Positions 3,155 through 62,236 of a stretch of DNA of 64,000 bases are shown in pieces. Origin of the DNA: Candidatus Moraniibacteriota bacterium (lineage in GTDB: Bacteria > Patescibacteriota > Minisyncoccia > Moranbacterales > UBA2206); contig JBAQNP010000020.1 in assembly GCA_049303905.1 (NCBI GenBank), positions 5,584 through 69,583 on the forward strand. Direction: 5' to 3'. Numbering within the stretch: position 1 is the first letter of the stretch; each line of letters starts with the position of its first letter. The notes under the pieces were generated by a model that saw only the letters and a list, made by a program, of their open reading frames with translations, did not search any database and was not told where the DNA came from. A program made the position numbers and the translations under genes.

Positions 3155-3180
3155 GATGATTTAGTTTCTTTATTTTTCTA

Positions 3181-3414: not shown

Positions 3415-4590
3415 ATGTTTGAGATAATTTCAAAAAATCCCGCCTCGACTCGCGGAGACGGTCACTCGTCGATGCGAGGCGGGAGCAATAGTCGAGTTGG
3501 AAAAATTAGACTTAAAAACGGAGAAGTTAACACTCCGTTTTTTATGCCTGATGCGACGCGTGGTTTTGTGCGATCAATTGACAATGAAATTTTAAATTCC
3601 ATAGGTCTCGAAGCGATTCTCATTAACACCTATCATTTGTTTTTAAATCCTGGAATGAAAATAATCAAAGAAGCGGGTGATGCTCATGGCTTTATGAATT
3701 GGTCGCGTCCACTGCTTTCTGATTCGGGTGGATATCAGGTTTTTTCGCTTATTCATAAAAATCCGCGTCTTGGGAAGATTACTGATAATGAGGTGATTTT
3801 TAAATCTCCCCATAGTGGAGAAAAACATATTTTAACACCAGAAATTGCCATTCAAATTCAGTTTGATTTGGGGGTGGACATGATGGTTTGTTTGGATGAT
3901 CCACCACCGAATGATTATTCAAAAGATAAAATTGAAAAAGCAGTTTTGCGGACTATTCGTTGGGCAAAGAGGTGTAAAGATGAATATGAAAAACAAATTC
4001 AAGAAAGAAAAATATCTGAAAAAAATCGACCGTTAATTTTTGGGGTTATTCAGGGCGGGGAATATTTAGATCTTAGAAAACATTGTACCGAGGAACTAGT
4101 GAAAATCGGGTTCGATGGTTATGGTTTTGGAGCGAGACATATCGATGTTGATGGAAATTTCATGGAAGAAGTGGTGCGAGAAACCGCTGGCTTTATCCCA
4201 GAAAATTCATTGCGTTTTGCTTTGGGAGTTGGTACACCGGAGGATATTGTGAAATGTTTTTCATATGGCTGGGATATGTTTGATTGTGTGATTCCTACTA
4301 GAGAAGGGCGACATGGGCGTTTGTTTTTGCGAAAAGGAAAGAGTCTCACTGAATATGAAACAATTAATATTAATAACGGAAAATATAAAAATGATTTTTC
4401 GCGAATTGACGAGAATTGTGATTGTATGTTATGTAAGAATCACACTCGAGCCTATTTGCACCATCTTTTTTCTTCCAAAGAAATGCTTGGGATGAGACTC
4501 TCTGCAATTCATAATTTGAAGTTTTATGTGGATTTACTGGCGTCACTCCGAAATGGCGTAAATTCAAAAAAAATTGAACTCAAACCTTAA
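3415..4590 (+). CDS. tgt: Queuine tRNA-ribosyltransferase
   Basis: 391 aa with the DSGGYQ motif and a C-terminal CDCMLC zinc site. The N-terminus carries a 15-aa insertion encoded by a GC-rich palindrome. Confidence 0.9.
   Translation: MFEIISKNPASTRGDGHSSMRGGSNSRVGKIRLKNGEVNTPFFMPDATRGFVRSIDNEILNSIGLEAILINTYHLFLNPGMKIIKEAGDAHGFMNWSRPLLSDSGGYQVFSLIHKNPRLGKITDNEVIFKSPHSGEKHILTPEIAIQIQFDLGVDMMVCLDDPPPNDYSKDKIEKAVLRTIRWAKRCKDEYEKQIQERKISEKNRPLIFGVIQGGEYLDLRKHCTEELVKIGFDGYGFGARHIDVDGNFMEEVVRETAGFIPENSLRFALGVGTPEDIVKCFSYGWDMFDCVIPTREGRHGRLFLRKGKSLTEYETININNGKYKNDFSRIDENCDCMLCKNHTRAYLHHLFSSKEMLGMRLSAIHNLKFYVDLLASLRNGVNSKKIELKP
3439..3483 (+). repeat. GC-rich palindromic element family 1, 45 nt, in-frame inside tgt (encodes PASTRGDGHSSMRGG)
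   Basis: cccgcctcgactcgcggagacggtcactcgtcgatgcgaggcggg has terminal inverted repeats cccgcctcg/cgaggcggg. It is the reverse-orientation match of the copies at 37026, 29539 and 62138. Confidence 0.75.
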
Positions 4591-4650: not shown

Positions 4651-4712
4651 TTAGGTTTTCAAACAGTAATTTTTCTCGAATTTACGCCATTTCTCCGTTT
4701 TATAAAAAAATA

Positions 4713-8239: not shown

Positions 8240-8863
8240 ATGAAAAATAAAAAAACTATACCAAAACAAAAATCACTTTCAATTATTCCGGACGAAAGAA
8301 TTGTAGGAAAAATATATCTGATTCGAGGAGAAAAGGTGATGTTTGATCGTGATTTAGCGGAGCTTTATGAAGTGGAAACAAAAGCATTGAACAGAGCGGT
8401 TAAAAGAAATATAAAAAGATTCCCAGCTGATTTTATGTTTCAGTTGGATAAAAATGAATCTGAAATATTTTCAAGGTACCATTCTGGCACCTTGAAAGAG
8501 GATGCTAACTTGAAGTCACAAATTGTGACTTCAAGAGATGACAAAAACTTGAGGTACCAAATTGGCACTTCAAGGTCACAAATTGTGACCTTGAAGAAAG
8601 GGCAGAATATAAAGTATCGCCCTTATGTTTTTACCGAACAAGGTGTAGCCATGCTGTCAGCTGTTTTGAAGAGTGAGAGAGCAATTGAAGTAAGCATCCA
8701 AATTGTTCGAGTTTTTATAAAAATGAAAAAATTATTGACTACTCATAAAGAACTGCGAGAAAAAATTGAGAAAATGGAAAAATCGAACAAAGAAAATTTC
8801 ACCCCGTTAGAAATTTTTAAAAATAAATATTATGAAATGGTGGTACATTTATGTTTTGCTTAG
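8240..8863 (+). CDS. ORF6N (KilA-N-like) domain protein
   Basis: 207 aa. N-terminus IRGEKVMFDRDLAELYEVETKALNRAVKRNIKRFPADFMFQL is the canonical ORF6N signature, and the C-terminal YVFTEQGVAMLSAVLKSERAIEVSIQIVRVF is conserved. Has an internal duplicated SQIVT segment. Confidence 0.75.
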   Translation: MKNKKTIPKQKSLSIIPDERIVGKIYLIRGEKVMFDRDLAELYEVETKALNRAVKRNIKRFPADFMFQLDKNESEIFSRYHSGTLKEDANLKSQIVTSRDDKNLRYQIGTSRSQIVTLKKGQNIKYRPYVFTEQGVAMLSAVLKSERAIEVSIQIVRVFIKMKKLLTTHKELREKIEKMEKSNKENFTPLEIFKNKYYEMVVHLCFA

Positions 8864-9098
8864 TCTAAAGGATAATAAATGGTATACTGGATATACTGGT
8901 AATCTAAAAAATAGAATTGCAAAACATAATTCTGGAGAAGTATTTTCTACAAAAAACAGGAAGCCATTTAAACTGATATATTCAGAAGCTTGTTTAAATA
9001 AATTAGACGCCCAAGCTCGAGAAAGATATTTAAAATCAGGAATGGGCAAAAGATATCTTAGGAATAGATTAAGATGTTATTTTGATAAAAATGATTAA
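8832..9098 (+). CDS. GIY-YIG nuclease domain protein, small stand-alone
   Basis: 88 aa. YIYVLLS...KWYTGYTGNLKNRIAKHN matches the GIY-YIG motif. Overlaps the 3' end of the ORF6N gene by 32 nt. Confidence 0.7.
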   Translation: MKWWYIYVLLSLKDNKWYTGYTGNLKNRIAKHNSGEVFSTKNRKPFKLIYSEACLNKLDAQARERYLKSGMGKRYLRNRLRCYFDKND

Positions 9099-14652: not shown

Positions 14653-14689
14653 GGAGAGAACTAAAAACAAAAAAATATTCTTGAAATTA

Positions 14690-14755
14690 ACTCGCCCTTG
14701 ATTTTTATAGCTAAAAATATCCCTCAATCAACGGCGGGAAAGGATATTTTAAGAT
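14690..14755 (+). repeat. Copy 3 of the hairpin motif (aattaactcgcccttgatttttatagctaaaaatatccctcaatcaacggcgggaaaggatatttt)
   Basis: 9-bp stem aaaatatcc/ggatatttt around the 19-nt loop ctcaatcaacggcgggaaa. The upstream arm aattaactc...gctaaaaat is shared with copy 1. Confidence 0.55.
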
Positions 14756-15027
14756 AAAAATCTAGGGCTCAAACAAGAATTTCGGCGAATATTTTTTGTT
14801 TTTAGTGGAGAGGAGGGAGAGAGGCGAGATATGAAGCATGAAAAAAGAGGGGTTCAATTTTATCGATAAAATTACAAAAAGGCTTATATAAAGCAAAATA
14901 GAATAACGGCTATTGCGTAAAAAACTGCCACATGGTAGGATATTTAGGTCGTTTTGAAAACTGGGTGGCAGGGAGGTTTAGCAAAAGCTTAGGCTAAAAA
15001 GGGGACATTCCAGACAAACTGAAAATA

Positions 15028-23260: not shown

Positions 23261-23818
23261 TTATTGTGATGTTATTATTATATTAAATCCTCCAGGAAAT
23301 CTTTTTATTTCTTGTTCTATTTTATTAGGTACGGAAATGCTTTTTACAAATTCAATCAGATTTTGTCTAGCTAGATCACCATGGGCTTTTTCCCGACCCT
23401 TTAGAATTATTTCAATTTTTACTTTATTGCCTTTGGTGAGAAATTTTTCCGTTTGATCTTTCTTGAAATTCAAATCATGTTCATCAGTTCTAACGCTCAA
23501 GCGAATGCCTTTAGTTTCAAATTTTTTCTGTTTGGATTTATTCTGTCTTTCTTCTTTGGATTTTTGGTATTGAAATTTTCCAAAATCCATAATCTTGCAA
23601 ACAGGTGGTACGGCCTTGGGGGATATTTCAACCAAATCAAGCATTTTTTCTTTTGAAAGAATCAAAGCTTCCGGCACAGTCATTACTCCAAGCAACCCTC
23701 CATCCTCGTCAATGACGCGAATTTCTTTAGCCCAGATACCTTCATTTATTCTTGTTTTTGATGCCTTTTGTACAAAAGGCTTGCGATATATTCTTCTAAT
23801 GGTTTTTTTGTTAATAAT
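23261..23818 (-). CDS. infC: Translation initiation factor IF-3, probably with a non-AUG (AUU/AUA) start
   Basis: The ORF-track fragment starts at TTG 23695. The frame stays open upstream to a TAA at 23825-23827 and encodes ...TRINEGIWAKEIRVIDEDGG, homologous to the IF-3 N-domain (RINGEIRAQEVRL in E. coli). The only in-frame candidates are ATT/ATA codons at 23813-23824, consistent with the known infC AUU autoregulatory start. Confidence 0.8.
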   Translation of the reverse strand: MINKKTIRRIYRKPFVQKASKTRINEGIWAKEIRVIDEDGGLLGVMTVPEALILSKEKMLDLVEISPKAVPPVCKIMDFGKFQYQKSKEERQNKSKQKKFETKGIRLSVRTDEHDLNFKKDQTEKFLTKGNKVKIEIILKGREKAHGDLARQNLIEFVKSISVPNKIEQEIKRFPGGFNIIITSQ

Positions 23819-23906
23819 TATTATTTACGAAAATACGAATTTAGCGAAAGTACGAATAAAATTCAAAAAGGATTAGTAATTTCGTTCGATTCGTATTTTC
23901 GTAAAT

Positions 23907-26371: not shown

Positions 26372-27724
26372 ATGAAATTCGCATTGTTCGTATCGCTTAT
26401 GCGTATTGCAATTTTTACTAATAACTATTTACCTAATCCCTATGGCGTGACGCGGTCGATTGAAACATTTCGACGCGAGATGGAAAAACAGGGGAATGAG
26501 GTCTTTATTTTTGCTCCGTACTGGAAAAATTATAAGGATGTCAATAAAAATGTTTTTCGTTTTCCTTCATTTGATATTGAAATTAAATTTCGCTTTCCTT
26601 TGGCGATTCCATATTCCTGGAAAATTGATAAGATAATAAAGAATCTTGATCTGGATGTGATTCATGCTCAGCATCCCAATCTTCTTGGAAGCGTGGCAAT
26701 GAAATGGGCGAAGAGGAAAAAGATTCCCTTGATTTTTACTTGGCACACTCTTTATGATCAATATACTAATTTTGTGCCGTTTGTCCCAGCAAAAATTTCG
26801 GCCGGATATATTATCAAAAAAGCGGTTAAATTTGCTAACTTGGCGGACGCCGTAATTGTGCCGACAGATTCAATCATTCCAATTATTCGAAAATGGGGGG
26901 TGAAAAATTGTCATCCTGAATTTACCTTGCCTACCGGCAGGCAGGTTTCAGGATCTAAAAAAGAGATGCTGAAACAAGTTCAGCATGACAGAATATATGC
27001 TATCCCGACAGGAGTTCTTGAGGAAGAATTTGAAAATCCTGATAGAAATAAAATAAGAAAAAAATATAATATAAAAGATGATGAAACTGTTCTGTTTATG
27101 GTTTCCCGATTAACTGCGGAAAAAAATGTTGAATTTATTTTTCGATCAATTAAGAATATTCTAGCGGACAGTCCGCTAGAGGGCGGACTGTCCGCGCTTA
27201 ATGTTAAATTTCTAGTTGTAGGAGATGGGTATCTCAGGAATAATTTAGAAGAATATTGCCGACGGGAAAATATTTCAGAAAAAATAATTTTTTGCGGAGA
27301 AGTAGAAAGGCAAGAAATTAAAAATTATTTTGCTTCTGCGGATATTTTTGTCTATGGCTCAAAATCAGAAACGCAAGGAATGATAATCACCGAGGCGATG
27401 TATATGGGGCTCCCAATCGTGGCAGTTTCGGCGACCGGGATAAATAGTTTAGTTTTGAATAATGGCAATGGATTTTTAGTAGAAGAAAATTCACCCTGTG
27501 GAATACCGCTACGCGGTAGCGACAAAGTCGCTATTCCACAGGGCGAGAAAGAATTTGAAAAAGCAGTTTTTAAATTGATTAACGACAAAGATTTACGAAA
27601 AAAATTTGGCGAAACTTCCGCGCGTATCGCTAGAATTAATTTCACCTCTTCGATTTGCGCCGAGAAAATTTTGAAAGTTTATAATAACCTTATTGAAAGT
27701 AAAAAAAGACATTATTCTAGATGA
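26372..27724 (+). CDS. Glycosyltransferase family 4 (GT-B, group 1)
   Basis: The C-terminal domain has GSKSETQGMIITEAMYMGLPIVA (the EX7E region). The true start is probably MRIAIF at 26399, because the first 9 codons lie inside a gcgaat-repeat array. The CDS holds three different palindromic insertions (26909-26990, 27160-27196, 27493-27545). Confidence 0.8.
   Translation: MKFALFVSLMRIAIFTNNYLPNPYGVTRSIETFRREMEKQGNEVFIFAPYWKNYKDVNKNVFRFPSFDIEIKFRFPLAIPYSWKIDKIIKNLDLDVIHAQHPNLLGSVAMKWAKRKKIPLIFTWHTLYDQYTNFVPFVPAKISAGYIIKKAVKFANLADAVIVPTDSIIPIIRKWGVKNCHPEFTLPTGRQVSGSKKEMLKQVQHDRIYAIPTGVLEEEFENPDRNKIRKKYNIKDDETVLFMVSRLTAEKNVEFIFRSIKNILADSPLEGGLSALNVKFLVVGDGYLRNNLEEYCRRENISEKIIFCGEVERQEIKNYFASADIFVYGSKSETQGMIITEAMYMGLPIVAVSATGINSLVLNNGNGFLVEENSPCGIPLRGSDKVAIPQGEKEFEKAVFKLINDKDLRKKFGETSARIARINFTSSICAEKILKVYNNLIESKKRHYSR
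26909..26990 (+). repeat. Double-hairpin element family 2 copy, in-frame inside the GT4 gene (encodes CHPEFTLPTGRQVSGSKKEMLKQVQHD)
   Basis: tgtcatcctgaattt...ttcaggatc...gagatgctgaaacaagttcagcatgaca. The same element is intergenic at 31308, 40896 and 53703. This copy also carries an inner ccggcaggcagg palindrome. Confidence 0.7.
27160..27196 (+). repeat. GC-rich perfect 13-bp hairpin (gcggacagtccgc-tagagg-gcggactgtccgc) in-frame in the GT4 gene
   Basis: Seen directly. Encodes LADSPLEGGLSAL. Confidence 0.6.
27493..27545 (+). repeat. Composite palindrome ccctgtggaata...tattccacaggg (family 5) in-frame in the GT4 gene
   Basis: 12-bp terminal inverted repeats enclose two inner palindromes (gctacgcggtagc, agcgacaaagtcgct). 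The same terminal repeat bounds a 94-nt region upstream of glmS. Confidence 0.6.
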
Positions 27725-29976
27725 ATTTTTTCTGAAAACTTTTTAAGGGAATCAGCTATTAGCGGATGCTCTTTTAACTTGGGATCGTTTTCTAATAAAT
27801 ATGCGGCTTCGGCACGGGCGAATTTAATGAGTTTTGTATTGCCTAAATTTTCCATAGCAATATCAGGCAAGCCTGATTGAATGGTGCCAAAGAATTGTCC
27901 TGGACCACGTAATTTCAAATCATGCTCAGAAATTTCAAAACCATCATTGGTTTTTTCCATTATTCTTAAACGCGTAGGGACTAAGCCCCCAATTGGGGAC
28001 TTAGTCCCTGAATTGGCAAACAAAAAACAATAAGATTGCTCTTTTCCTCGTCCAACTCGTCCGCGAAACTGATGCAATTGGGTGAGACCAAATCTCTCGG
28101 CGTTTTCAATGACTATTACAGTTGCATTGGGAATATCGATGCCAACTTCTACTACAGATGTAGAAACTAAAATATCAAAATTTTTATTTTTAAAATCTTC
28201 CATCACTTCTTCTTTTTCTTTAGCTTTCATTTTCCCATGAAGAAGCCCAAGCTTAAATTCAGAAAATATAACTTGGGATAATCTCTCGTGTTCCTCTTTG
28301 ACGGCTTTGACATCGATCATACTTTCAGAAAGTGATTCCTCGACTAATGGCAAAATAACAAAAGCTTGTCGACCTTTTTTTATTTCACTGCGAATGAAAT
28401 CATAGACTTTTTCTCGATCATTCGGGGTAATTATTTTAGTAATAATATTTTTTCTATTTTTAGGCATTTCATCTAAAATTGACAAATCTAAACTGCCAAA
28501 ATAGGCGATGGCCAGCGTTCGTGGAATTGGCGTAGCGGTCATAGTTAAAAGATGGGGGATAACTTTTTTATTCCCATCATCGATATTCATAGTTTCACTT
28601 TGGAGTGTTGCGCGTTGATTGACGCCAAAACGATGCTGTTCATCGATAATCACCAGTGCTAGATTTTTAAATCGAACATCTTTTTGAATTAGCGCGTGAG
28701 TGCCGATAACTAACTGCACTTCATCTGTTTGGATAGATGATAGCAACTCAGAGCGAGTTGTGTTTTTTATAGTTCGAGTATAATTTTTAATTTTCAATTT
28801 GCAATTTTCAATCAATTTTAAATTTTCAATTTTCAAATCTTGATTTACTTTTGGTTCTGAAATTAATTTATATGAGCTAGTTAACAAAGCTATTTTTATA
28901 TTGTAATTTTTAAAAATATCACAAAAACTTTCAAAATGTTGGCGAGCCAAGACTTCTGTTGGCGCCATAAGAGCCGTTTGATATCCGGCGGAAATTGTTT
29001 GTAGTGCGGAAATGGCGGAAACAATTGTTTTTCCAGAACCAACATCACCATTAAGCAGTCGATTCATGGGGCATGGTCTTTCTAAATCTTTCAAAATTTC
29101 GAAAGTTGCCTTTCTTTGAACGTCAGTGAGCTTGAAGGGTAATTCGAGCGTGAATTTCTTAATTAATTTTTCATCAAATTTTATTTTGTTAGAATCTTTT
29201 TCTTTCCAGTTTTTTCTAATTTCCAAAGTTCTGATTTGCACTAGAAACATTTCTTGAAAGGCCATTCTTTTTTGGGCGCGAATAAGCTTTTCCATATCAT
29301 CAGGGAAATGAATTTGCGAGAGGGTAGTATAGATATCGGATAGATTATATTTTTTTCGAATTTCAATAGACAAAATATCAGGTATATTTTTAGCTAAAGG
29401 CAAGAGGGTTTTTATCTGCCAGCGAATCCATTTGGAAGTTATGCCGGAAGTTTCACTGTAGATTGGGACGAGTCTTCCAGTGTTAGTGGCATCGCGAGTG
29501 GATTTTTCAAAGGCAGGATTACTCATAGAAAAATATTTCCCGCCTCGCGCCTGCCTCGCCGAGTCAAGGCGGGTCGACGAGCAGTTGTCTCCGCGAGTCG
29601 AGGCGGGCCCACTCATTCCAAGTTTTCCAGAAAATCTTGCGGTGGAGCCAATGGGAAAATTTTCTAATATATAAGGCTGATTAAACCATACAGCCTTGAG
29701 AAGATTTCCATTTTGATCCTCGAGGACGATTTCCGTGATGGTCATTTTTCGACGAAAGAGTCGATTGTTTTTGGCTTTGATAATTTTGCCTTCGACTGTA
29801 ATAGCTTGCCCAACGAAATCATTTGAAAGCGAAACGGTTTTGGAAAAATCATCATAACGAAAAGGAAGATATAATAAAAGATCTTTGATTGTAAGAAGTC
29901 CGAGTTTTTCCAAAACACGGATATATTTAGGTGTAATGCGGGGGACAGATTTTAGTGAAGTGTTTATGTCTAGCAT
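27712..29976 (-). CDS. recG: ATP-dependent DNA helicase RecG
   Basis: 754 aa with the wedge domain and helicase motifs (DVGSGKT, DEQHRFGV). Contains in-frame insertions: a nested family 1 GC palindrome (29539-29608) and an AT-rich attttcaa repeat block (28783-28838). Confidence 0.9.
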   Translation of the reverse strand: MLDINTSLKSVPRITPKYIRVLEKLGLLTIKDLLLYLPFRYDDFSKTVSLSNDFVGQAITVEGKIIKAKNNRLFRRKMTITEIVLEDQNGNLLKAVWFNQPYILENFPIGSTARFSGKLGMSGPASTRGDNCSSTRLDSARQARGGKYFSMSNPAFEKSTRDATNTGRLVPIYSETSGITSKWIRWQIKTLLPLAKNIPDILSIEIRKKYNLSDIYTTLSQIHFPDDMEKLIRAQKRMAFQEMFLVQIRTLEIRKNWKEKDSNKIKFDEKLIKKFTLELPFKLTDVQRKATFEILKDLERPCPMNRLLNGDVGSGKTIVSAISALQTISAGYQTALMAPTEVLARQHFESFCDIFKNYNIKIALLTSSYKLISEPKVNQDLKIENLKLIENCKLKIKNYTRTIKNTTRSELLSSIQTDEVQLVIGTHALIQKDVRFKNLALVIIDEQHRFGVNQRATLQSETMNIDDGNKKVIPHLLTMTATPIPRTLAIAYFGSLDLSILDEMPKNRKNIITKIITPNDREKVYDFIRSEIKKGRQAFVILPLVEESLSESMIDVKAVKEEHERLSQVIFSEFKLGLLHGKMKAKEKEEVMEDFKNKNFDILVSTSVVEVGIDIPNATVIVIENAERFGLTQLHQFRGRVGRGKEQSYCFLFANSGTKSPIGGLVPTRLRIMEKTNDGFEISEHDLKLRGPGQFFGTIQSGLPDIAMENLGNTKLIKFARAEAAYLLENDPKLKEHPLIADSLKKFSEKIHLE
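29539..29608 (+). repeat. Family 1 GC-rich palindromic element, nested/duplicated copy, in-frame in recG
   Basis: cccgcctcgcg + cctgcctcgccgagtcaaggcggg + tcgacgagcagttgtctccgcgagtcgaggcggg. On the - strand it encodes PASTRGDNCSSTRLDSARQARGG. Confidence 0.75.
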
Positions 29977-30309: not shown

Positions 30310-31299
30310 GTGATAGACTCGAATTATAAGCAATCTAAATTAAAAATTATGAAAATTCAAGAAATATTTAATGAAGCGGTTAAAATAGGAATTGAAAATG
30401 ATTTTCGTAACCAAGAGGAGATCCAAAACTATTTAAAAAGACAAAAAGAGCTATATGAAAAAATGCCCAAAGAGGAAAAGGACTATTTTGACAAGGAAAA
30501 ACTGACCAATCCCTATTCTGATACCAGAATTCATAATGATAATGGAGTAAAAAATATCAAAAAAGCAATAGTCGGAATTGACCTTTCAATGGGCGGATTG
30601 CTTTTGGCCAAAGAATTGGGCGTGGATTTGGTTATCAATCATCATCCAATCGGGCTGGCTTTGACAGGCCTAGATGATGTGATGAATTATCAAATTGATT
30701 TTTTGGAAAAATTCGGCATTCCAGTTAACATCGCGGAAAAATTATTGCACAAAAGAATTTCTGAAGTAGCGCGTGGGATAAATCCGGCTAATCATTATGT
30801 GACGGTGGACGCAGCCAGGCTTTTGAAAATAAATTTGATGAATATACATACTCCGGGGGATAATTGTGGGGCGATGTACCTGACAAAACTTATTGAAAAA
30901 AATAACCCGCGTTATGTGAGTGATATTTTGGAAATTCTTATGAAAATTCCAGAATACCAAGAAGCCAAAAGACAAGGCGCAGGGCCAATGCTTTTTGCTG
31001 GTACGCCTAATAATCGGGCGGGAAAAGTTGTAGTTTCTGAATTTACCGGCGGGACAGAAGGCTCCAAAGAAATATATCAAGCCATGGCTAATGTTGGCAT
31101 TGGAACAATAATTGCCATGCATCTGAGCGAAGATCACAAGAAAGAAGCCGAAAAAGCTAATATCAATGTGGTAGTGGCTGGGCATATCTCCAGTGATTCA
31201 TTGGGAATGAATATTATTTTGGATAAATTAGAAAAGAAAGGACTTGAGATAATTCCATTTAGTGGACTAATCAGAATAAAACGCAATAAGAAAAAATGA
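30310..31299 (+). CDS. Nif3 (YqfO/YbgI) family metal-binding protein
   Basis: INHHPIG near the N-terminus and VAGHISSDSLGMN near the C-terminus, the conserved His clusters of Nif3. Confidence 0.65.
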   Translation: MIDSNYKQSKLKIMKIQEIFNEAVKIGIENDFRNQEEIQNYLKRQKELYEKMPKEEKDYFDKEKLTNPYSDTRIHNDNGVKNIKKAIVGIDLSMGGLLLAKELGVDLVINHHPIGLALTGLDDVMNYQIDFLEKFGIPVNIAEKLLHKRISEVARGINPANHYVTVDAARLLKINLMNIHTPGDNCGAMYLTKLIEKNNPRYVSDILEILMKIPEYQEAKRQGAGPMLFAGTPNNRAGKVVVSEFTGGTEGSKEIYQAMANVGIGTIIAMHLSEDHKKEAEKANINVVVAGHISSDSLGMNIILDKLEKKGLEIIPFSGLIRIKRNKKK

Positions 31300-31307
31300 C
31301 ACGCAAG

Positions 31308-31371
31308 TGTCATCCTGAATTTATTTCAGGATCTAAACAATAGAGATGCTGAAAGCAAGTTCAGCATGACA
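31308..31371 (+). repeat. Double-hairpin element family 2 copy (intergenic, between the nif3-like and M16 genes)
   Basis: tgtcatcctgaatttatttcaggatc...gagatgctgaaagcaagttcagcatgaca. Confidence 0.7.
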
Positions 31372-36620: not shown

Positions 36621-36674
36621 GCATGTAGCATAAAACATATTTTGTTTCATGCTTCATGTTTCATGCTTCATGTT
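36621..36674 (+). repeat. MKHET-type AT-rich element (catgaaacatg word array), palindromic arrangement in the tatD 5' leader
   Basis: gcatgtagcataaaacat...tttcatgcttcatgtttcatgcttcatg shares gcatgtagcat and catgaaacatg words with the in-CDS copies at 5388, 54003, 54747 and 59741. Confidence 0.6.
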
Positions 36675-37539
36675 GATCGATACCCATGCTCATCTAAATT
36701 TCTCTGCATATAAAAATGATGCGGAAGAAGTAATTGGAAAAACTCTCGCGGAGGGTGTTTTTGTGATTAATGTGGGGTCGCAATATTCGACTAGTGTGCG
36801 GGCGGTGAAGTATGCCAAGAAGTATAATGGGCTATATGCGGCAATTGGAATTCATCCGCTTCATCTTCAGGCGCAAAAATTTTCCTATCATGACCCAGAT
36901 GAAATTGAAGAGGTGGAAATTGAAACAGCTGGAGAAATTTTTGAAAAAGAAAAATATTTGGAATTGGCTAAGAATTCAAAGGTGGTGGCGATTGGAGAAG
37001 TTGGTTTAGATTATCATCATTTCGACCCGCCTCGCGTCGACGAAGCGTCTCCACGAGTCGAGGCGGGTGCCGAGGATAACATTGAAAAATTAAAAGAAAA
37101 GCAGAAAGAAATATTTTTAGAATTTATCAAACTGGCGAATGCTGTGGAAAAACCGATCATGATTCATTGTTGGGACGCCTATGACGATCTATATGAAATG
37201 CTGGAAAAAAATCCAGTAGAGAAAAGAGGTGTGATTCATAGTTTTGTAGGAAGCTATAAAACTGCTAAGAAATTTATCGAGCTTGGCTATTTAATTGGAC
37301 TTAACGGTATAGTGACTTATGGGATAAGTTATGATAAGCTTATTCGCGAAGTTGATTTACGAAATATCATTTTAGAAACGGACTGCCCCTATCTTACTCC
37401 TGTGCCAAAAAAAGGTGAGAGGAATGAGCCGATGTATGTGAAATATGTTGCAATGAAGATAGCGGAAGTTAAGGGAATTCCATTAGAAGAAGTGGAGAAA
37501 ATAACAACAGAAAATGCTAAAAAATTATTTGGAATATAA
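36649..37539 (+). CDS. tatD: TatD family metal-dependent hydrolase
   Basis: IDTHAHL at the N-terminus (likely start ATG 36670), GEVGLDYH motif. Carries a 14-aa in-frame insertion, PPRVDEASPRVEAG, from a GC palindrome. Confidence 0.85.
   Translation: MLHVSCFMLIDTHAHLNFSAYKNDAEEVIGKTLAEGVFVINVGSQYSTSVRAVKYAKKYNGLYAAIGIHPLHLQAQKFSYHDPDEIEEVEIETAGEIFEKEKYLELAKNSKVVAIGEVGLDYHHFDPPRVDEASPRVEAGAEDNIEKLKEKQKEIFLEFIKLANAVEKPIMIHCWDAYDDLYEMLEKNPVEKRGVIHSFVGSYKTAKKFIELGYLIGLNGIVTYGISYDKLIREVDLRNIILETDCPYLTPVPKKGERNEPMYVKYVAMKIAEVKGIPLEEVEKITTENAKKLFGI
37026..37067 (+). repeat. Family 1 GC-rich palindromic element (42 nt) in-frame in tatD
   Basis: cccgcctcgcgtcgacgaagcgtctccacgagtcgaggcggg, 14 codons exactly. 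Confidence 0.75.
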
Positions 37540-39774: not shown

Positions 39775-39932
39775 TTTCAGATGCTCCATCTAACGAGGTG
39801 GGGCAAAATGAGATTGTTAAAAATTCCAAGATACAAGAAACAAGAAACAAACAAATCACAATTTTAAAAATTCAATAATCAAACAGTGTTAATTTGTAAG
39901 TTGATTATTGAAAATTATTTGTATCTTGTAGC

Positions 39933-40445
39933 TTGTTTCTTGATTATTATAATTTTATGGATGAACTAATAAAAACATTTCACATTGAAGTTAACTTACT
40001 CTTAGCGCAGATGGTCAATTTTGTCATCGTGCTTTTGGTGCTGTATAAATTTGCCTACAAACCGATTTTGAAAACATTAAATGACAGGACGAAAAAAATT
40101 GAAAAAGGTTTGAAAGATAGTGCTGATGCTTCACAAAAATTGGAGGAAATAACTGAAAAAGAAAAAGAAGTTTTACTAAACGCCAAAAAAGAAGCCCAAG
40201 AAATTATCAAAAAATCTGAAAATGAAGCTAGGAAAAATGCTGAAAACATCACGACCGAAATGAAAGAAAAAAATGCCAAAATGCTTGAAGACGCCAAGGC
40301 AATGATTGAAGAAGAGAAAAAGAAAATGCTTTCTGAGATAAAATCAGAAGTGGCTGATCTTGTGGTGATGGCGACGGAAAAAGTGATTGCGGAGAAATTA
40401 GATTTAAATAAGGACAAAGAAATAATTGAAAAAGCGATAAAATAA
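39933..40445 (+). CDS. atpF: ATP synthase F0 subunit b
   Basis: N-terminal TM followed by a long charged coiled-coil. Confidence 0.8.
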   Translation: MFLDYYNFMDELIKTFHIEVNLLLAQMVNFVIVLLVLYKFAYKPILKTLNDRTKKIEKGLKDSADASQKLEEITEKEKEVLLNAKKEAQEIIKKSENEARKNAENITTEMKEKNAKMLEDAKAMIEEEKKKMLSEIKSEVADLVVMATEKVIAEKLDLNKDKEIIEKAIK

Positions 40446-40847
40446 ATGAAAATCACAGCCACGCAATACGCGAAAAGTTTATATGAAGTGACACGGGAAA
40501 AATCTCAAAACGAGATTGGTGTTGTGATAGAAAATTTTGTGAAAATTTTGACGAAAAATAGGCAAACTAAATTGGTTGTGAAAATTATCAAGAAATTTGA
40601 AGAGTTATATAACAGAGAAAGTGGTATTGCGGAAGTGGAAATAATAACAAGATACAAGATACAAGATACAAGATACAAACAAATTGAGGAATTTATTAAG
40701 AAGAAATACGGGGCGAAAGAAGTTGTGATTGAAAATAAAATTGACGAAAGCATCAAGGGTGGAATAATTTTGAAAATCGGCGATGAAATTTTGGACGCGA
40801 GCGTGGAGAGACAGTTAGTAGAGTTGAAGAAAAGTCTGAACCACTGA
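40446..40847 (+). CDS. atpH: ATP synthase F1 subunit delta (OSCP)
   Basis: Position and size fit. Start overlaps the atpF stop. Contains an (AAGATAC)x4 tandem heptamer encoding TRYKIQDTRYK. Confidence 0.7.
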   Translation: MKITATQYAKSLYEVTREKSQNEIGVVIENFVKILTKNRQTKLVVKIIKKFEELYNRESGIAEVEIITRYKIQDTRYKQIEEFIKKKYGAKEVVIENKIDESIKGGIILKIGDEILDASVERQLVELKKSLNH

Positions 40848-40895
40848 TTATCACGTGAGCTCACATGATTTCACTGAATTAAAAATAGAAAAAAT

Positions 40896-40964
40896 TGTCA
40901 TCCTGAACTTGTTTCAGGATCTCCGAAACTAAGTACGAGATTCCGAAACAAGTTCGGAATGACA
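40896..40964 (+). repeat. Double-hairpin element family 2 copy (variant) downstream of atpH
   Basis: tgtcatcctgaacttgtttcaggatc...gattccgaaacaagttcggaatgaca. Hairpin B arms have changed (ccgaa instead of gctgaa) but the inverted repeat is preserved. Confidence 0.65.
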
Positions 40965-41063
40965 TAATAGAGATAGAAGTTCTTTGGAAAATTAAAAATA
41001 AAAAAGCCACGTCATCCTAATAATACAGGAATCAGTGGCTTTCGGCTGGCGAGGCGACGATAA

Positions 41064-41279: not shown

Positions 41280-41475
41280 ATTCTTCACCTCCTTTATAAA
41301 AAAGTTTTAAGGTTATTGAGATGATTACATTGAATCAAATCGTATAAATATAGTATGAAATTAATAAAAAGTCAAATTTTTACTAACATACGAATCTTTC
41401 TAAAATACTAATTCGTACTTTCGCTAGATTCGTACTTTCGTAAATTATAATCTAACTAAAATTTATAAAAACATT

Positions 41476-43014: not shown

Positions 43015-43108
43015 TCTTTACTAATTACGAATCAAGTACGAACATAACTAATAAAAAAATTCGTAATTCGTATATTAGTAAATAATTAGTAATTCGTAAA
43101 GAAAAGCT

Positions 43109-44068: not shown

Positions 44069-44244
44069 CCAATAACCAAGATACAATAACCAAAAAAATT
44101 CCAATACTCAAAATCCAAATTGGTAATTGTATCTTGTGTCCTTGGTGATTGCGAAGACTGTTCTTTGGAAAATTTAAAATAAAAAAGCCATCAAATCTAG
44201 AAGTAGATGATGACTTTAAGTTTAAATTACCGCCTTTTGGTGAT

Positions 44245-44397: not shown

Positions 44398-44640
44398 ATG
44401 TACCTCCTTTTAAGGTTAAAAAATACGTTGATTTTCACTAACCTAATATTATACTCCAAATCAACTAAAAAGTCAACCCTTAAATCCTAATCAGTGAATA
44501 ATTGGCTAAAATAAAGCAAAGAATAACTTTTTTACGAATTACGAATTTTATACGAATATACTAATAATATTTTTTTAAAGATTAGTATATTAGTAAAGAG
44601 ATTAGTAATTAGTAAAGACATAACTTAAAATTAATTCTAA

Positions 44641-51856: not shown

Positions 51857-53695
51857 ATGTGTGGAATAATTGCTTATATTGGAAAACAAAAAGCGGTGCC
51901 AATTCTTCTGGAAGGACTAAAGCAACTTGAATATCGAGGCTATGATAGCGCTGGAATTTCTGTTATTCAAAATGAGAAAATAACTACCATAAAAGCGGTA
52001 GGAAAAGTGGTGGAATTGCAAAATAAAATTGGTAGCCTAGAATTTATTGGAAATATTGGTATTGCTCATACGCGGTGGGCAACACATGGGAAGCCAAGCG
52101 ATGTGAATTCTCATCCGCATGGAGATTGTCAGGGAAATATTTTTTTGGTGCATAATGGGATAATTGAAAATTATCAAGAACTTAAAAAATTGCTTCAAAA
52201 GAAAAAACATAAATTTGTTTCAGAAACCGACTCGGAAGTTTTGGCGCATCTCATTGAAGAATTTAATAAGAAGTTTGATTTTAAAAAATCTGTTTTGGAA
52301 GCTTTGAAACTTATTCGTGGAACTTATGGTTTAGCGATAATTTCTGCGCGAGAGCCGGACAAAATAATTATCGCTAGAAATGGTTCACCCTTGATACTTG
52401 GAATTGGCAAAGATGAATTTATTGTAGCATCCGACGCCAGCGCCATTGTGCGCCACACTGACAAAGTGATTTATTTGGATGATGGAGAAATGGCCGAGAT
52501 TAGTGCGGATGATTTTGAAATTAGCAATATTAAAAACAAGGTCGTGAGCAAGGAAATTTCTAAATTAAATTGGACATTAGAGGAGTCAAAAAAAGGTGGA
52601 TTCTCGCACTTTATGCTCAAAGAAATTTTCGAACAACCAGAGGTGATTGCAAACGGTCTGCGTGGCAGAGTAGAGCATTTCTTGTCGGAAGATAATTTTC
52701 CGATTCTTGGTGGACTTCGTCCGATAGAAAAAAGACTTCGGCGTATCAAAAAAATTATCATCGTCGCTTGTGGTACTTCATATTATTCCGGATTAGTCGG
52801 AGAATATATGCTCGAAGAATATGCCGGAATTCCAACGGAAGTGGAATATGCCTCTGAGTTTCGCTATCGGAAACCAATTTTAGATTCTTCAACAGCTGTT
52901 GTGGCAATTTCTCAATCAGGTGAAACAGCCGATACATTGGCGGCCATTCGTGAAGCTAAAAACAAAGGAGCGCTGACACTGGGAATTGTGAATGTGGTTG
53001 GTTCAACCATTGCACGCGAAACAGATGCAGGAACTCACACACTATCTGGTCCGGAAATTGGGGTAGCTTCAACCAAGGCTTTCACTACGCAACTTGTAGT
53101 TTTGGCGCTGTGGACAATGATGCTTGGGCGACAAAGAGACATGTCAAATGTGATGAATAAACGAATTGCAATGGAGCTAAAAAATATGCCAAAAATCATT
53201 GAAGGAATTTTAAAAAAATCTAAGGAGATAAAAAAGATTGCTAAAAAATATTCGAGCGCTAAAGATTTTTTGTATCTAGGTAGAAAATATAATTTTCCGA
53301 TTGCACTTGAAGGAGCGCTAAAGATAAAAGAAATTTCCTATGTGCACGCTGAAGGCTATGCGACAGGAGAAATGAAACACGGTCCAATTGCACTAATTGA
53401 CGAAAACTTCCCTTCAATTTTCATTTGCCCGAAAGACAGTGTCTATGAAAAAAATATTTCTGGCATGCAAGAAATCAAAGCGCGTGGTGGAAAAATAATT
53501 GCCATTGCTACGATGGGCGACAAAGAAATTGCGCGCATTGCCGACGACGTAATTTATATTCCAAAAACTTTGGAAATGCTTACGCCCTTTATTTCAGTTA
53601 TTCCTTTGCAACTCTTTGCCTATTATTTTGGCGTGGCCAAAGGTTATGATGTGGACAAGCCAAGGAATTTAGCTAAGAGTGTGACGGTAGAATAA
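51857..53695 (+). CDS. glmS: Glutamine--fructose-6-phosphate aminotransferase
   Basis: MCGIIAYIG Ntn start and two SIS domains. Confidence 0.95.
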   Translation: MCGIIAYIGKQKAVPILLEGLKQLEYRGYDSAGISVIQNEKITTIKAVGKVVELQNKIGSLEFIGNIGIAHTRWATHGKPSDVNSHPHGDCQGNIFLVHNGIIENYQELKKLLQKKKHKFVSETDSEVLAHLIEEFNKKFDFKKSVLEALKLIRGTYGLAIISAREPDKIIIARNGSPLILGIGKDEFIVASDASAIVRHTDKVIYLDDGEMAEISADDFEISNIKNKVVSKEISKLNWTLEESKKGGFSHFMLKEIFEQPEVIANGLRGRVEHFLSEDNFPILGGLRPIEKRLRRIKKIIIVACGTSYYSGLVGEYMLEEYAGIPTEVEYASEFRYRKPILDSSTAVVAISQSGETADTLAAIREAKNKGALTLGIVNVVGSTIARETDAGTHTLSGPEIGVASTKAFTTQLVVLALWTMMLGRQRDMSNVMNKRIAMELKNMPKIIEGILKKSKEIKKIAKKYSSAKDFLYLGRKYNFPIALEGALKIKEISYVHAEGYATGEMKHGPIALIDENFPSIFICPKDSVYEKNISGMQEIKARGGKIIAIATMGDKEIARIADDVIYIPKTLEMLTPFISVIPLQLFAYYFGVAKGYDVDKPRNLAKSVTVE

Positions 53696-53702
53696 ATATT
53701 CT

Positions 53703-53775
53703 TGTCATCCTGAATTTATTTCAGGATCTTCTAAGGGCGCTTAATTGAGATGCTGAAAACAAGTTCAGTATGACA
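53703..53775 (+). repeat. Double-hairpin element family 2 copy, immediately downstream of glmS
   Basis: tgtcatcctgaatttatttcaggatc...gagatgctgaaaacaagttcagtatgaca. Confidence 0.7.
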
Positions 53776-53789
53776 GACCTTTTAATTTT

Positions 53790-54170
53790 ATGGATATTAG
53801 CTCAATCAAAAACACCCGAGAATTTTTTTGGACGAATCATTCTAAAATGAAACTTCTTCAGTATGGCTTGAGTCCGAGTTCTGTCAAAAGTGTGATCAGG
53901 CGACCTGATCGAACTGAAACTGGCATCGCGCCCAAAACTACGGCGGTGATGAAAAGAAAAGATTCGAAGAAAACTAAAAAAGAGGTTTGGGTGATGATAC
54001 AGAAACATAAAGCATATAACATGAAACATGAAACAAATAAAAAAGAAAAAATGCTTCATGGAGTTAGTTCAAAAACAAAAATAATTTCTGCGTGGATTTA
54101 TCCGGGGGTGAGTCCGAAAGGGAAGGATATTTATGTGCCGGAGGATGTGTGGGGTGCTTTGAATGAATAG
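53790..54170 (+). CDS. Hypothetical protein carrying an MKHET element insertion
   Basis: 126-aa ORF with no recognised family. The internal segment KAYNMKHETNKKEK is encoded by the AT-rich repeat at 54003-54060. Confidence 0.4.
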   Translation: MDISSIKNTREFFWTNHSKMKLLQYGLSPSSVKSVIRRPDRTETGIAPKTTAVMKRKDSKKTKKEVWVMIQKHKAYNMKHETNKKEKMLHGVSSKTKIISAWIYPGVSPKGKDIYVPEDVWGALNE

Positions 54171-54332
54171 AAAAGTTGTTTGGCTTTTTTCCTTACGAAT
54201 TACGAATTTATTACAAATATACGAATGTACGAATAATTAAAAGAATGGGAATGGGTTATTATTTTAAGGTCAAAACTTTATCGATAAAATTGAAATAGGC
54301 TTTATTTAAGGCAAAAAATATATAGAATAATT

Positions 54333-60374: not shown

Positions 60375-60415
60375 TGCTAAAATTTTTCTAAGTCAACGGC
60401 TGGTACGAAAAATTT
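60375..60415 (+). repeat. Copy 5 of the hairpin motif (gctaaaatttttctaagtcaacggctggtacgaaaaattttag) in the divergent promoter region
   Basis: 11-bp stem ctaaaattttt/aaaaattttag around a loop containing TCAACGGCTGG. Confidence 0.55.
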
Positions 60416-60521
60416 TAGAAAAAATCCGCATTCTTCGAACAACAATTTTTTCCAAATTACAAAAATTAAATTAACAATAGAGAGGGAGAGGAGAAAATTT
60501 TAATCATTCAATTTATTTATT

Positions 60522-62125: not shown

Positions 62126-62137
62126 GCTTTACGAATT

Positions 62138-62178
62138 ACCCGCCTCGCGTCGACGAGCGTCTCCGCGAGTTGAGGCGG
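62138..62178 (+). repeat. Family 1 GC-rich palindromic element, intergenic copy between parA and parB
   Basis: cccgcctcgcgtcgacgagcgtctccgcgagttgaggcggg. Confidence 0.75.
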
Positions 62179-62236
62179 GCGAATTTATACGAATTTACAA
62201 ATAATTTGGTAATTAAAATATTTTAAAATAAAAATT

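Follow-up and report, generated by a model that had tools for sequence, protein, structure and literature searches.

How does the same GC-rich palindrome come to lie, in frame, within three unrelated housekeeping genes of a Candidatus Moraniibacteriota bacterium, and what put it there? A first-pass annotation of the 64-kb stretch of contig JBAQNP010000020.1 analysed here (the window) had reported a palindromic element of about 75% GC, in surroundings of about one-third GC, inserted into tgt, recG and tatD as well as between parA and parB, and had compared it with the Rickettsia palindromic elements (RPEs). We consider it very probable that the element represents a family of selfish mobile hairpin DNA, the genic copies of which are translated as insertions into their host proteins. 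Less certain is how the hairpin moves.

Four copies and their host genes

All four annotated copies of CCCGCCTCG…CGAGGCGGG were recovered, with lengths of 41-69 nt (Table 1); only the end of the recG copy and the coordinates of the intergenic copy had to be corrected by one position. A search of the window with an nhmmer profile of the element returned these four copies and no others. Their GC contents (73.3% tgt, 73.9% recG, 73.8% tatD, 75.6% parA/parB) compare with 36.6% for the window, in good agreement with the annotated contrast, and the 99.9th percentile of all 40-nt windows of the stretch is 70% GC. Allowing at most one mismatch, the 9-mer CCCGCCTCG occurs 14 times versus 3.5 expected occurrences, a number reached in 0 of 100 shuffles. 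The terminal inverted repeats span 9 bp, as had been noted, and are perfect; in the parA/parB spacer copy, the right one carries one mismatch. Other palindrome families likewise lie in frame within the 64-kb window.

Table 1. Positions of the element copies, their host genes and the nuclease gene within the window
Feature	Coordinates	Strand	Description	Encoded peptide
tgt copy	3439..3483	-	45 nt, reverse relative to tgt	PASTRGDGHSSMRGG
recG composite copy	29539..29607	+	69 nt, 23 codons	PASTRGDNCSSTRLDSARQARGG
tatD copy	37026..37067	+	42 nt, forward orientation	PPRVDEASPRVEAG
parA/parB spacer copy	62139..62179	+	41 nt, not a multiple of 3	
tgt host gene	3415..4590	+	queuine tRNA-ribosyltransferase, PF01702	
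recG host gene	27712..29976	-	wedge, DEAD and Helicase_C domains	
tatD host gene	36649..37539	+	TatD-family hydrolase, PF01026	
small GIY-YIG nuclease gene	8832..9098	+	88 aa; hairpin upstream of family members elsewhere	

Each copy folds into a hairpin, with energies of -12 to -14 kcal/mol for DNA and -23 to -26 kcal/mol for RNA and z values of about -2 to -3. Within the inner helix, 87% of the cells are paired but only one pair shows compensatory changes. Since this covariation is weak, we do not build any conclusion on it. The element contains no stop codon in any of the six frames, and a comparison with Rfam families gave no match at E up to 10 except noise.

In tatD, the copy separates the second from the third base of a GAT (Asp) codon, while the tgt copy is placed between codons 8 and 9. 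The recG copy is indeed nested, as annotated: an outer 45-nt element (29539-29549 plus 29574-29607) is split at CGCG|TCGA by an internally deleted mini-copy of 24 nt (29550-29573). In RecG, the insert corresponds to about residues 123-146, just past the Pfam RecG_wedge match (residues 10-111). The fourth copy, flanked by the ParA and ParB genes, is inserted at TA|CG within a TTACGAAT repeat. The reading frame is intact across the insert in all three genic copies, and the peptides previously quoted for them could be reproduced.

We compared the host proteins with their relatives. Most of the 120 TatD relatives are 275-276 aa long and are without the 14 residues. Deleting the 42 nt from tatD gives back HHFDAEDN; the corresponding stretch of relative P0008 reads HHFDAED. 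Of the Tgt relatives examined (120 scanned for the motif, 70 of them aligned across the insertion site), P0128 alone has the insert, apart from two decayed remnants. The RecG insert is unique among 57 aligned orthologues, i.e., those of the 60 top representatives that are shorter than 760 aa. That is, the segments are absent from most or all of the orthologues compared, as expected for the pure insertions that had been proposed. The alternative named beforehand, i.e., an ancestral feature, is excluded by ortholog alignment: across lineages, the peptide is found at no fewer than three positions of the TatD loop, in both orientations and including nested versions.

The location in loops, also part of the earlier claim, rests on different grounds for the three proteins. 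In the confident AlphaFold model of TatD (mean pLDDT 89), residues 127-140 lie within a coil (residues 122-144) with pLDDT values of 71 and 48 over the two blocks of 10 residues at the insert, and the alignment with solved TatD structures is interrupted there. For Tgt and RecG, positions in turns are inferred only, because the conserved segments flanking the inserts are otherwise 0-3 residues apart.

Spread, insertion and probable translation

Had the element been restricted to its four places in the window, the earlier interpretation would have been refuted. This is not the case. A scan by terminal pattern identified more than 118 loci, with more than 110 copies beyond those of the window, nearly all in Patescibacteria MAGs of 33-45% GC; one MAG harbours at least 13 copies. 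Matches from high-GC sources (Streptomyces, Microthrixaceae, Planctomycetota and others; 58-76% GC) were put down to chance agreement with the terminal pattern, and a single match in viral contigs, with unrelated interior, was also judged to be due to chance. The termini are extremely conserved over CPR lineages of phylum level, and identical 42- and 45-mers are found at unrelated loci of different MAGs. Among the matches listed, copies are 40-46 nt long with modal lengths of 42 and 45 nt, and 69 of 124 copies (56%) lie within stop-free ORFs of at least 150 codons. Hosts elsewhere comprise TopA, UvrA, UvrB, SecA, SecD, GyrB, GlmS, AtpA and the CCA-adding enzyme, among others; intergenic copies are found in repeated TACGAAT-type motifs.

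Insertion of the element is precise, lacks a target-site duplication and prefers purine|pyrimidine (R|Y) junctions. Filled and empty sites of tatD and tgt differ by a clean insertion, and a 2-nt target duplication is present in 1 of the 120 copies listed. Of these 120 copies, 32 are flanked by G|T and 21 by A|C; CG|TA is the most frequent junction, and beyond a purine at -1 no fixed 5' motif was found at their insertion sites. The same and neighbouring sites have been struck repeatedly and in both orientations. For instance, the tatD site TTYGA|N holds a forward copy in the window and in locus L122, a reverse copy in L119 and none in L120, while L121 has its copy at a second site, 9 nt further downstream. 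Furthermore, the element nests in itself and decays via substitution and internal deletion; the alleles of the Tgt site comprise one intact copy, one with substitutions, one 21-nt remnant and one empty site. Recent activity in the source genome is not demonstrated, because no filled/empty polymorphism has been shown within a single population.

Genic copies are distinguished by length and frame. Among the listed copies, the length is a multiple of 3 for 61/69 genic versus 30/55 non-genic ones (Fisher p = 3e-5), and a single reading frame holds 32 of the 69 genic copies (binomial p = 9e-9). Nearly all genic copies are 42 or 45 nt long and two of the six frames are favoured, whereas the hairpins of the non-coding cassettes described below show every length. 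The peptides of the favoured frames (PASTRGD..SSTRGG and PPRVDE..PRVEAG) are small, polar and nearly uncharged, with a net charge of 0 to +1 vs. +4 (45-nt consensus). Given these lengths and the two-frame bias, it is most likely that genic copies are translated and not spliced out; RNA or peptide data are not available, and junction peptides of host and insert, e.g., ..HHFDPPRVDEASPR.. and ..ISKNPASTR.., are predictions from sequence. We infer that genic copies persist only as whole codons, in loops or turns, and in the two favoured frames. In terms of these statistics, they would form RPE-like loop extensions of 14-15 residues in essential proteins.

Three other readings of the element have to be weighed here. 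The extreme conservation of the termini across phylum-level lineages and the intergenic copies in repeated motifs could mean that the element is no parasite but a signal selected by the host, such as one for DNA uptake, termination or protein binding. We regard this as very improbable, since presence per site is sporadic even in close relatives, copies occur in both orientations and decay, the hairpin in the parA/parB spacer is not followed by a T-run, and four copies per 64 kb were judged to be below the usual density of uptake sequences. Equally improbable is that genic copies are removed as mini-introns, as processed RNA hairpins or by translational bypassing, which would leave the proteins unaltered. 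CPR genomes are rich in introns within rRNA and tRNA genes (PMC13011429, PMC11270868), the RNA hairpin is stable, and related hairpins reside within tRNA-derived sequence. However, removal at the RNA level would leave length, orientation and phase free, while 88% of the genic copies are multiples of 3, with strongly biased frame; decayed remnants are still present in frame; and neither an Rfam match nor a stop codon in any frame was found. The criteria of introns and inteins (group I/II, bulge-helix-bulge, intein splicing motifs) are not met by the element, and an intein cannot be as short as 14-15 residues. A somewhat better, but still improbable, candidate is a single-strand hairpin of IS200/IS605 or REP/RAYT type, moved by a HUH tyrosine transposase encoded elsewhere. 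It would account for hairpin structure, small size, missing target duplication and missing classical transposase-type ends. Single-strand insertion at the lagging strand predicts a strong orientation bias, but 20 of 35 intergenic copies are on the G-rich strand, i.e., no bias relative to local GC skew is observed. Moreover, the copies lack a conserved 5' tetranucleotide, more than half of those listed are located in ORFs, unlike REPs, and no Y1/HUH transposase was seen beside any copy, albeit without a systematic search. We thus retain the mobile hairpin with translated genic copies and turn to its possible mobiliser.

A nuclease gene linked to hairpins and tRNA fragments

Within element-centred loci, 10 of 16 GIY-YIG genes have the element directly upstream. 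We also inspected 80 metagenome loci that were picked by the GIY-YIG peptide motif alone, as derived from a 6-sequence alignment. The element is found at most 250 nt upstream in 41/80 of these loci, a same-strand tRNA at most 250 nt downstream in 58/80, and both features in 39/80. Where the element is missing, its position is mostly taken by a related hairpin of the CCCGCCCG or CCTGCCCG type. Overall, a GC-rich hairpin lies upstream in 69/79 GIY-YIG loci (87%) vs. 95/491 control windows (19%).

The cassette hairpin is located upstream of the nuclease gene within a duplicated tRNA 5' fragment, i.e., a direct repeat of 28-33 nt, and its insertion point varies between D-loop, D-stem, acceptor stem and T-loop. 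Particular hairpin subfamilies, with lengths of 40, 47 and 51-52 nt, are repeated where cassettes stand in tandem (L088, L046) or were encountered mainly next to a GIY-YIG gene, a tRNA fragment or a tRNA-like flank. Rfam searches over the cassettes gave tRNA matches only. We had also considered functional tRNAs that carry the hairpin. This idea was dropped, because ARAGORN restored no tRNA after removal of the element from D-loop-like loci; these loci are duplicated 5' fragments and not interrupted genes. The hairpin in a tRNA fragment upstream of a GIY-YIG gene is new here: our literature searches found no published description of the CPR elements or of such a GIY-YIG/tRNA cassette, and the annotated remark that the element was undescribed for CPR-type genomes stands within the scope of these searches.

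The encoded proteins of 77-88 aa consist of the catalytic domain only (PF01541, E = 5e-16 to 2e-13). Their closest solved relatives are UPF0213 proteins, with I-TevI and SLX1 being more distant. The window gene of this family has neither an element nor a tRNA adjoining, so that it is connected with the four copies by inference only. That the window holds no more than four copies in 64 kb and that its sole GIY-YIG gene is without element speaks against the main explanation.

Based on association alone, and without cleavage data, we tentatively propose the minimal GIY-YIG nuclease as a candidate mobiliser; we know of no GIY-YIG transposase that acts on hairpins. The stand-alone nuclease of ~80 aa would supply the cutting activity in trans, and its tRNA-linked cassette would include, as a constant part, a hairpin belonging to the element's family. 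The relation of hairpin and nuclease would then resemble that of REP and RAYT, or that of a miniature element and its parent insertion sequence. Still more speculative is the view that hairpin and 80-residue protein form an unrecognised kind of bacterial mobile element with a non-autonomous derivative. Here, the autonomous form would home into the 5' half of a tRNA gene, with the duplicated 5' part restoring the tRNA. The structure-specific nuclease would excise the non-autonomous hairpin and reinsert it with no target duplicated, and the hairpin may in this way have colonised CPR coding sequences and added loops to essential proteins.

Alternatively, the hairpin could be mobile and translated but moved by another enzyme or by a replication/repair route, such that hairpins merely pile up in the duplicated tRNA fragment upstream of GIY-YIG genes. 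The fragment would be a preferred GG|TA-type target without selective cost, and breaking the direct repeat would protect the cassette from deletion. This is in line with the differing insertion points within the fragment, with several hairpin families at the same cassette position and with D-loop junctions such as GG|TA, which fit the general R|Y preference. The hairpin-free GIY-YIG gene of the window also fits, as do the dispersed copies of one MAG that differ from the cassette copy of that MAG. Given hairpin frequencies of 87% vs. 19%, however, such a route needs near-saturating insertion at the cassettes despite about one element per 16 kb in the window, and particular hairpin subfamilies keep for the most part to cassettes, tRNA fragments or tRNA-like flanks. 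We hold it to be a possible but rather unlikely alternative. On balance, we lean towards the explanation as a whole, i.e., a selfish and translated hairpin of Moranbacteria and other Patescibacteria with a GIY-YIG nuclease acting in trans, with clearly less confidence than for the selfish hairpin itself.

Implications and relation to known systems

To our knowledge, there is essentially one textbook example of selfish DNA inside bacterial protein-coding sequence, i.e., Rickettsia. The element would provide a second, unrelated and far smaller in-gene family within the largest uncultured bacterial radiation, affecting core enzymes such as TopA, UvrA, SecA, GyrB and the ATP synthase alpha subunit. 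Streamlined genomes of ~1 Mb would thus carry active parasites too, given the above reservation on recent activity in the source genome. Some of the variation in protein length and some 'CPR-specific insertions' would be of parasitic origin, and sequence alignment, tree building and structure prediction may be misled by the inserts. With its exact, duplication-free boundaries and its module of hairpin, GIY-YIG gene and tRNA, the element offers a testable candidate mechanism. How GC-rich palindromes move in AT-rich genomes, including yeast mitochondria, is the same long-standing question.

Phage T4 SegB is a free-standing GIY-YIG homing endonuclease with its gene in a tRNA gene cluster (PMC2330249). 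The likeness is limited to the cassette: a GIY-YIG gene is found at tRNA genes, and protein clades differ by tRNA species. In contrast to SegB, the cassette duplicates the tRNA 5' part, usually with a GC hairpin, for which we encountered no earlier description. Seg and I-TevI enzymes possess a DNA-binding domain; the cassette protein is a catalytic domain alone and meets only the GIY-YIG domain criterion. MITEs (Correia/NEMIS, ERIC, RUP) duplicate their target site and descend from DDE insertion sequences that have the same ends. The element is similarly small and non-coding, meets the MITE-type criterion of terminal inverted repeats, and like MITEs is sometimes found in intragenic in-frame fusions. 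It differs by its lack of target duplication, and no DDE parent was seen beside the copies (complete genomes were not scanned). REPs are extragenic, have a conserved 5' tetranucleotide and depend on a HUH tyrosine transposase. With REP/RAYT systems the element shares short imperfect palindromes without target duplication, and the same hairpin beside a protein gene that is presumed to account for the spread. However, the enzyme candidate is of GIY-YIG and not of HUH type, the extragenic criterion is not met and no strand bias is observed; the IS200/IS605 criteria (fixed tetra-/pentanucleotide, orientation by replication strand) are not fulfilled either.

The yeast mitochondrial GC42 cluster is organellar, mostly intergenic and shows an AG target-site duplication; an endonuclease encoded elsewhere was proposed as mobiliser, with the mechanism being unresolved (PMC4478555). 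Both are GC-rich palindromes of ~42 nt in AT-rich genomes with stems more conserved than loops, and in both cases units merge and nest. In contrast to the yeast clusters, the element is found in bacterial genomes, without duplication and with more than half of its copies genic and in frame. RPEs are, as far as we know, confined to Rickettsia. They are ~100-150 bp long (Ogata et al. 2000, summarised in PMC10969869). RPEs and the element are both palindromic selfish DNA in frame within unrelated housekeeping genes of a small-genome bacterium, with an encoded peptide tolerated by fold and function, and with intergenic copies too. On the other hand, RPEs, at about 150 bp, are three times longer than the 42-45 nt of the element, which has twice the genomic GC content, occurs in several phylum-level CPR lineages, causes no target duplication and is linked to a GIY-YIG/tRNA cassette. 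In-frame and fold-compatible insertion is shared with RPEs, while neither the length nor, judged by the host, membership in a Rickettsia family fits, and the parallel drawn at first holds as an analogy and not as homology. In this sense of analogy, the element family is akin in kind to both the Rickettsia palindromic elements and the GC clusters of yeast mitochondria.

Element copies and their insertion into genes

We searched the window for the GC-rich palindromic element with a profile built from more than 60 family members and recovered exactly four copies. All copies reported by the first-pass annotation are present as placed, while two of its coordinates (recG and intergenic copy) were off by one. 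GC content of the copies is 73-76% compared to 36.6% for the window, of whose 40-nt windows just 0.1% reach 70%. With at most one mismatch, the terminal 9-mer is found 14 times in the window (3.5 expected), a count equalled by 0/100 shuffles. Each copy folds into a hairpin whose closing stem is formed by the 9-bp termini (DNA -12 to -14 kcal/mol, RNA -23 to -26 kcal/mol; z about -2 to -3). In recG, the copy is composite: at CGCG|TCGA, an outer element of 45 nt harbours an internally deleted one of 24 nt. The nesting point is G|T, the junction favoured by the element family. Pfam identifies the element-bearing ORFs as Tgt, RecG and TatD, with the fourth copy between ParA and ParB. As claimed by the annotation, the reading frame is kept in all genic copies (3/3), which encode the peptides PASTRGDGHSSMRGG, PASTRGDNCSSTRLDSARQARGG and PPRVDEASPRVEAG, respectively.

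Coordinates of element copies, other repeats and selected genes of the window
Feature	Positions	Length
Element copy in tgt	3439-3483	45 nt
Element copy in recG	29539-29607	69 nt
Element copy in tatD	37026-37067	42 nt
Element copy between ParA and ParB genes	62139-62179	41 nt
GT4 glycosyltransferase gene	26372-27724	
GT4 palindromic segments	26908-26990, 27163-27198, 27493-27545	
TGTCATCCTGAAyTTrTTTCAGGATCT family	31296-31339, 40884-40965, 53691-53734	
CAAGATA/CAAGAAA repeat	39827-39954, 40649-40686, 44070-44101, 55258-55289	
atpH	40446-40847	
CATGAAACATGAAACA family	5384-5432, 36640-36672, 54002-54050, 54738-54800, 59732-59779	
TTACGAATTACGAAT family	23817-23906, 41411-41451, 43018-43105, 44528-44576, 54187-54226, 62130-62200	
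AAATTTTCCCTCAATCRACGGCGG..AAGGAAAATTT motif	3180-3235, 3300-3347, 4604-4651, 14684-14761, 60379-60426	
GIY-YIG gene of the window	8832-9098	
ORF with Gly-rich region	9163-14652	1829 aa
GGYGG repeats	9680-10113	

The encoded segments had been read as pure insertions in loops, which comparison with orthologs supports. Most of the 120 TatD relatives have 275-276 aa and lack the segment. Across lineages, the element peptide occurs at no fewer than three separate points of the TatD loop (HHFD|..|AED, SED|..|NIE, QED|..|LKNK), and nested forms are also found. In tatD of the window and of L122 (L-numbers denote loci from other genomes), the element follows TTCGA in forward orientation and splits an Asp/Glu codon after its second base. 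In L119, the same point (after TTTGA) is occupied in reverse orientation, L121 has the element 9 nt downstream, and in L120 the site is empty. Deleting the 42 nt from the window's tatD results in HHFDAEDN, where the relative P0008 reads HHFDAED. Among the Tgt relatives (motif scan of all 120, site alignment for 70), the segment is absent except for one relative with the same 45 nt, substituted, one with a 21-nt remnant (CCCGCCTCG-CCAACA-GGTGGG) and one with a decayed insert peptide. The RecG insert (23-24 residues) is found in the window protein alone when compared to 57 aligned of the top 60 representatives. AlphaFold models TatD with confidence (mean pLDDT 89) and places the insert in coil 122-144 (block pLDDT 71 and 48), and the alignment to solved TatD structures is interrupted at the insert position. 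Given the relatives without segment as well as the TatD coil and alignment break, the Tgt, RecG and TatD segments are lineage-specific insertions and not ancestral, located in a loop of TatD and, by inference, in turns of Tgt and RecG.

Spread, junctions and inferred translation

The first-pass annotation had suggested looking for copies in related genomes. Scanning one genome per species for CCCGCCTCG-N18-34-GAGTYGAGGCGGG provided at least 118 loci. About 10 of the listed matches, from genomes of 58-76% GC, are due to chance; the remaining listed ones are from Patescibacteria metagenome-assembled genomes (MAGs) of 33-54% GC, mostly 33-45%. Moranbacteria are most frequent among the element-bearing MAGs listed, with at least 13 copies in a single MAG; further labels among the matches listed are Buchanan-, Roizman-, Gottesman-, Woese-, Nealson-, Pacei- and Saccharibacteria. 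Identical 42- and 45-mers are shared by unrelated loci of different MAGs. Pfam-confirmed hosts include TopA, UvrA, UvrB, SecA, SecD, GyrB, GlmS, the ATP synthase alpha subunit, the CCA-adding enzyme and an Elp3-like radical SAM protein. The four-copy observation is real, was read correctly and is general far beyond the window. Some element-bearing MAGs are labelled 'uncultured Bdellovibrionales' or 'Gammaproteobacteria' (L004, L018, L028, L039, L061, L063, L075, L093, L094, L098, L112; L021, L044, L048, L060). The flanks of these loci match Patescibacteria MAGs (e.g., L028 with L032, L004 with L090), and the labels are probably wrong.

No target-site duplication was found, with a 2-nt repeat at the flanks in 1/120 copies. 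A purine precedes the insertion (position -1) in 77% of copies, and a pyrimidine follows it (position +1), likewise in 77%. The commonest junctions are G|T with 32 copies and, as its complement, A|C with 21, often CG|TA within TACGAA repeats. The orientation of intergenic copies shows no bias with regard to local GC skew (20/35). Insertion is demonstrably precise, duplication-free and placed at R|Y steps; likewise, sites are reused in both orientations, the element nests in itself and copies decay.

Copies were counted as genic if located in an ORF running for at least 150 codons without a stop (n=69; 55 non-genic). Lengths are multiples of 3 for 61/69 genic vs. 30/55 non-genic copies (Fisher p = 3e-5), and the top one of six orientation/phase combinations covers 32/69 genic copies (binomial p = 9e-9), followed by 15 for the second. 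The 42- and 45-nt consensus has no stop codon in any frame, and of the peptides encoded by the latter, those from the two favoured frames carry the least charge (net 0 to +1 vs. +4). Removal of the inserts at the RNA level would leave length, frame and charge unconstrained, contrary to these data. We therefore infer that the inserts are read through, i.e., translated as in Rickettsia, which is a statistical inference and not a measurement.

A tRNA-linked GIY-YIG cassette

Several element copies have tRNA D-loop-like flanks. A reading as interrupted tRNAs was rejected, since deleting the element from such loci restored no tRNA. There is a recurrent cassette composed of a hairpin-interrupted tRNA 5' fragment (about 28-33 nt), a gene for a GIY-YIG nuclease of ~80 aa (PF01541, catalytic domain only) and an intact tRNA starting with the 28-33 nt of the fragment. 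This tie is unexpected, testable and was missed by the first-pass annotation. At non-coding cassette positions, element-family hairpins of all lengths are observed.

For a reverse test, 80 metagenome loci were picked by the GIY-YIG peptide motif alone, and elements were called within 250 nt upstream of the gene (at most one mismatch per terminus). An element is present in 41/80 loci, usually ending 9-40 nt before the start codon; a same-strand tRNA follows within 250 nt downstream in 58/80, and both are found in 39/80. In most other loci, the element's position is taken by a related hairpin, likewise GC-rich (CCCGCCCG..CGGGCGGG or CCTGCCCGAC..GTCAGGCGGG). When any GC-rich hairpin within 200 nt upstream is counted, 69/79 GIY-YIG loci are positive vs. 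95/491 control windows. The tRNA species (Glu, Gln, Leu, Arg, Asn, Ala) vary with the protein clade.

That the hairpin would be the recognised structure is inferred because element boundaries match the base of the terminal stem, which is invariant while the interior is variable. Our preferred enzyme candidate is the minimal GIY-YIG nuclease, since the hairpin is a near-constant part of its cassette. The lack of a DNA-binding domain suggests structure-specific rather than sequence-specific cutting, in analogy to SLX1-type enzymes. Speculatively, if an extruded hairpin or cruciform were cut symmetrically at its base, excision might leave no footprint. The main rival is a passive association of hairpin and nuclease gene, with the tRNA fragment being a preferred target free of selection, or with the insertion stabilising the cassette by breaking its direct repeat. 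While we favour the nuclease, its link to the element is tentative and, in our view, rather doubtful than probable.

Tandem cassette arrays are found in L088, L046 and L134, where the same hairpin-bearing tRNA 5' fragment precedes each cassette and the intact tRNA is at the array end; L088 shows two cassettes (ORF offsets 2033, 2359) and the 3' end of a third. Near the GIY-YIG ORF of L067 (minus strand), the duplicated tRNA copy reaches the T-loop, where two other hairpins (CCCCGTCATCCGACGGGG, CGCCATGTCGAATGACATGGCG) are inserted (GGTTCG|..|AATCC); a further tRNA 5' fragment with a 40-nt element lies upstream. Hairpin-bearing fragments beside an intact tRNA without GIY-YIG gene in between (L016 231-440; L082 753-918, two fragments in tandem) may be cassette remnants after loss of the nuclease gene. 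The window's own GIY-YIG gene is stand-alone, has a 16-bp inverted repeat on either side (ccccgttagaaatttt / aaaatttctaacgggg) and directly follows an ORF6N/Rha-type phage regulator gene. With a PD-(D/E)XK_3 nuclease gene nearby, regions 8240-9098 and 6109-6492 look like a small mobile patch.

Other repeats and relation to known systems

Palindromes of other, different families lie in frame in the GT4 gene, in no fewer than three segments: the hairpin GTCATCCTGAA..TTCAGGATC with the GC-rich palindrome ACCTTGCCTACCGGCAGGCAGGT nested, followed by the hairpin ATGCTGAA..TTCAGCAT, in the linker between the gene's two Pfam domains; a tandem pair of GCGGAC(A/T)GTCCGC palindromes; and a CCCTGTGGAAT..ATTCCACAGGG palindrome whose terminal repeats span 11 bp. 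It follows that in-frame palindromes are general in this genome. The intergenic TGTCATCCTGAAyTTrTTTCAGGATCT hairpin has 3 exact-pattern copies in the window (0 expected), the one at 40929-40965 being paired with a second hairpin (GATTCCGAAACAAGTTCGGAATGAC). The AT-rich CAAGATA/CAAGAAA heptamer is common in spacers; its second listed copy is in frame inside atpH (ATP synthase delta subunit) and encodes ..TRYKIQDTRYKQ.. there. The CATGAAACATGAAACA and TTACGAATTACGAAT spacer families occur in both orientations. The former overlaps the mechanical tatD ORF start (the public TatD entry begins 7 codons later), and the latter is the commonest intergenic target of the element (TA|CG). The conserved spacer motif AAATTTTCCCTCAATCRACGGCGG..AAGGAAAATTT (TTTTCC/GGAAAA stem, conserved loop) is located upstream of several genes including tgt and might serve as a regulatory hairpin or as a small RNA; it has no Rfam match at gathering score. 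The 1829-aa ORF combines its Gly-rich repeats with repeated purple-acid-phosphatase-N/FN3 units, and its region (10-14 kb) shows 44% GC and negative GC skew, unlike the rest of the window.

Literature searches on Candidate Phyla Radiation (CPR) bacteria turned up neither these hairpins nor the cassette; recent surveys of CPR rRNA/tRNA insertions report GIY-YIG inserts that are not introns, along with many short inserts left uncharacterised, with palindromes unmentioned. To our knowledge, Rickettsia palindromic elements are confined to Rickettsia. They are the closest functional analogue, sharing the in-frame lifestyle (PMC10969869), but are about three times longer. Structurally closest is the yeast mitochondrial GC42 cluster, likewise a 42-nt GC-rich palindrome of an AT-rich genome with merging units and unresolved mechanism, which differs in its AG duplication and mostly intergenic location (PMC4478555). 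REP/RAYT and IS200/IS605-derived elements also lack a duplication, while location, strand bias and enzyme class differ. Membership among classical MITEs fails given the missing target duplication. The CPR element is new, though kindred selfish elements are already known, and its reach extends well past the window.
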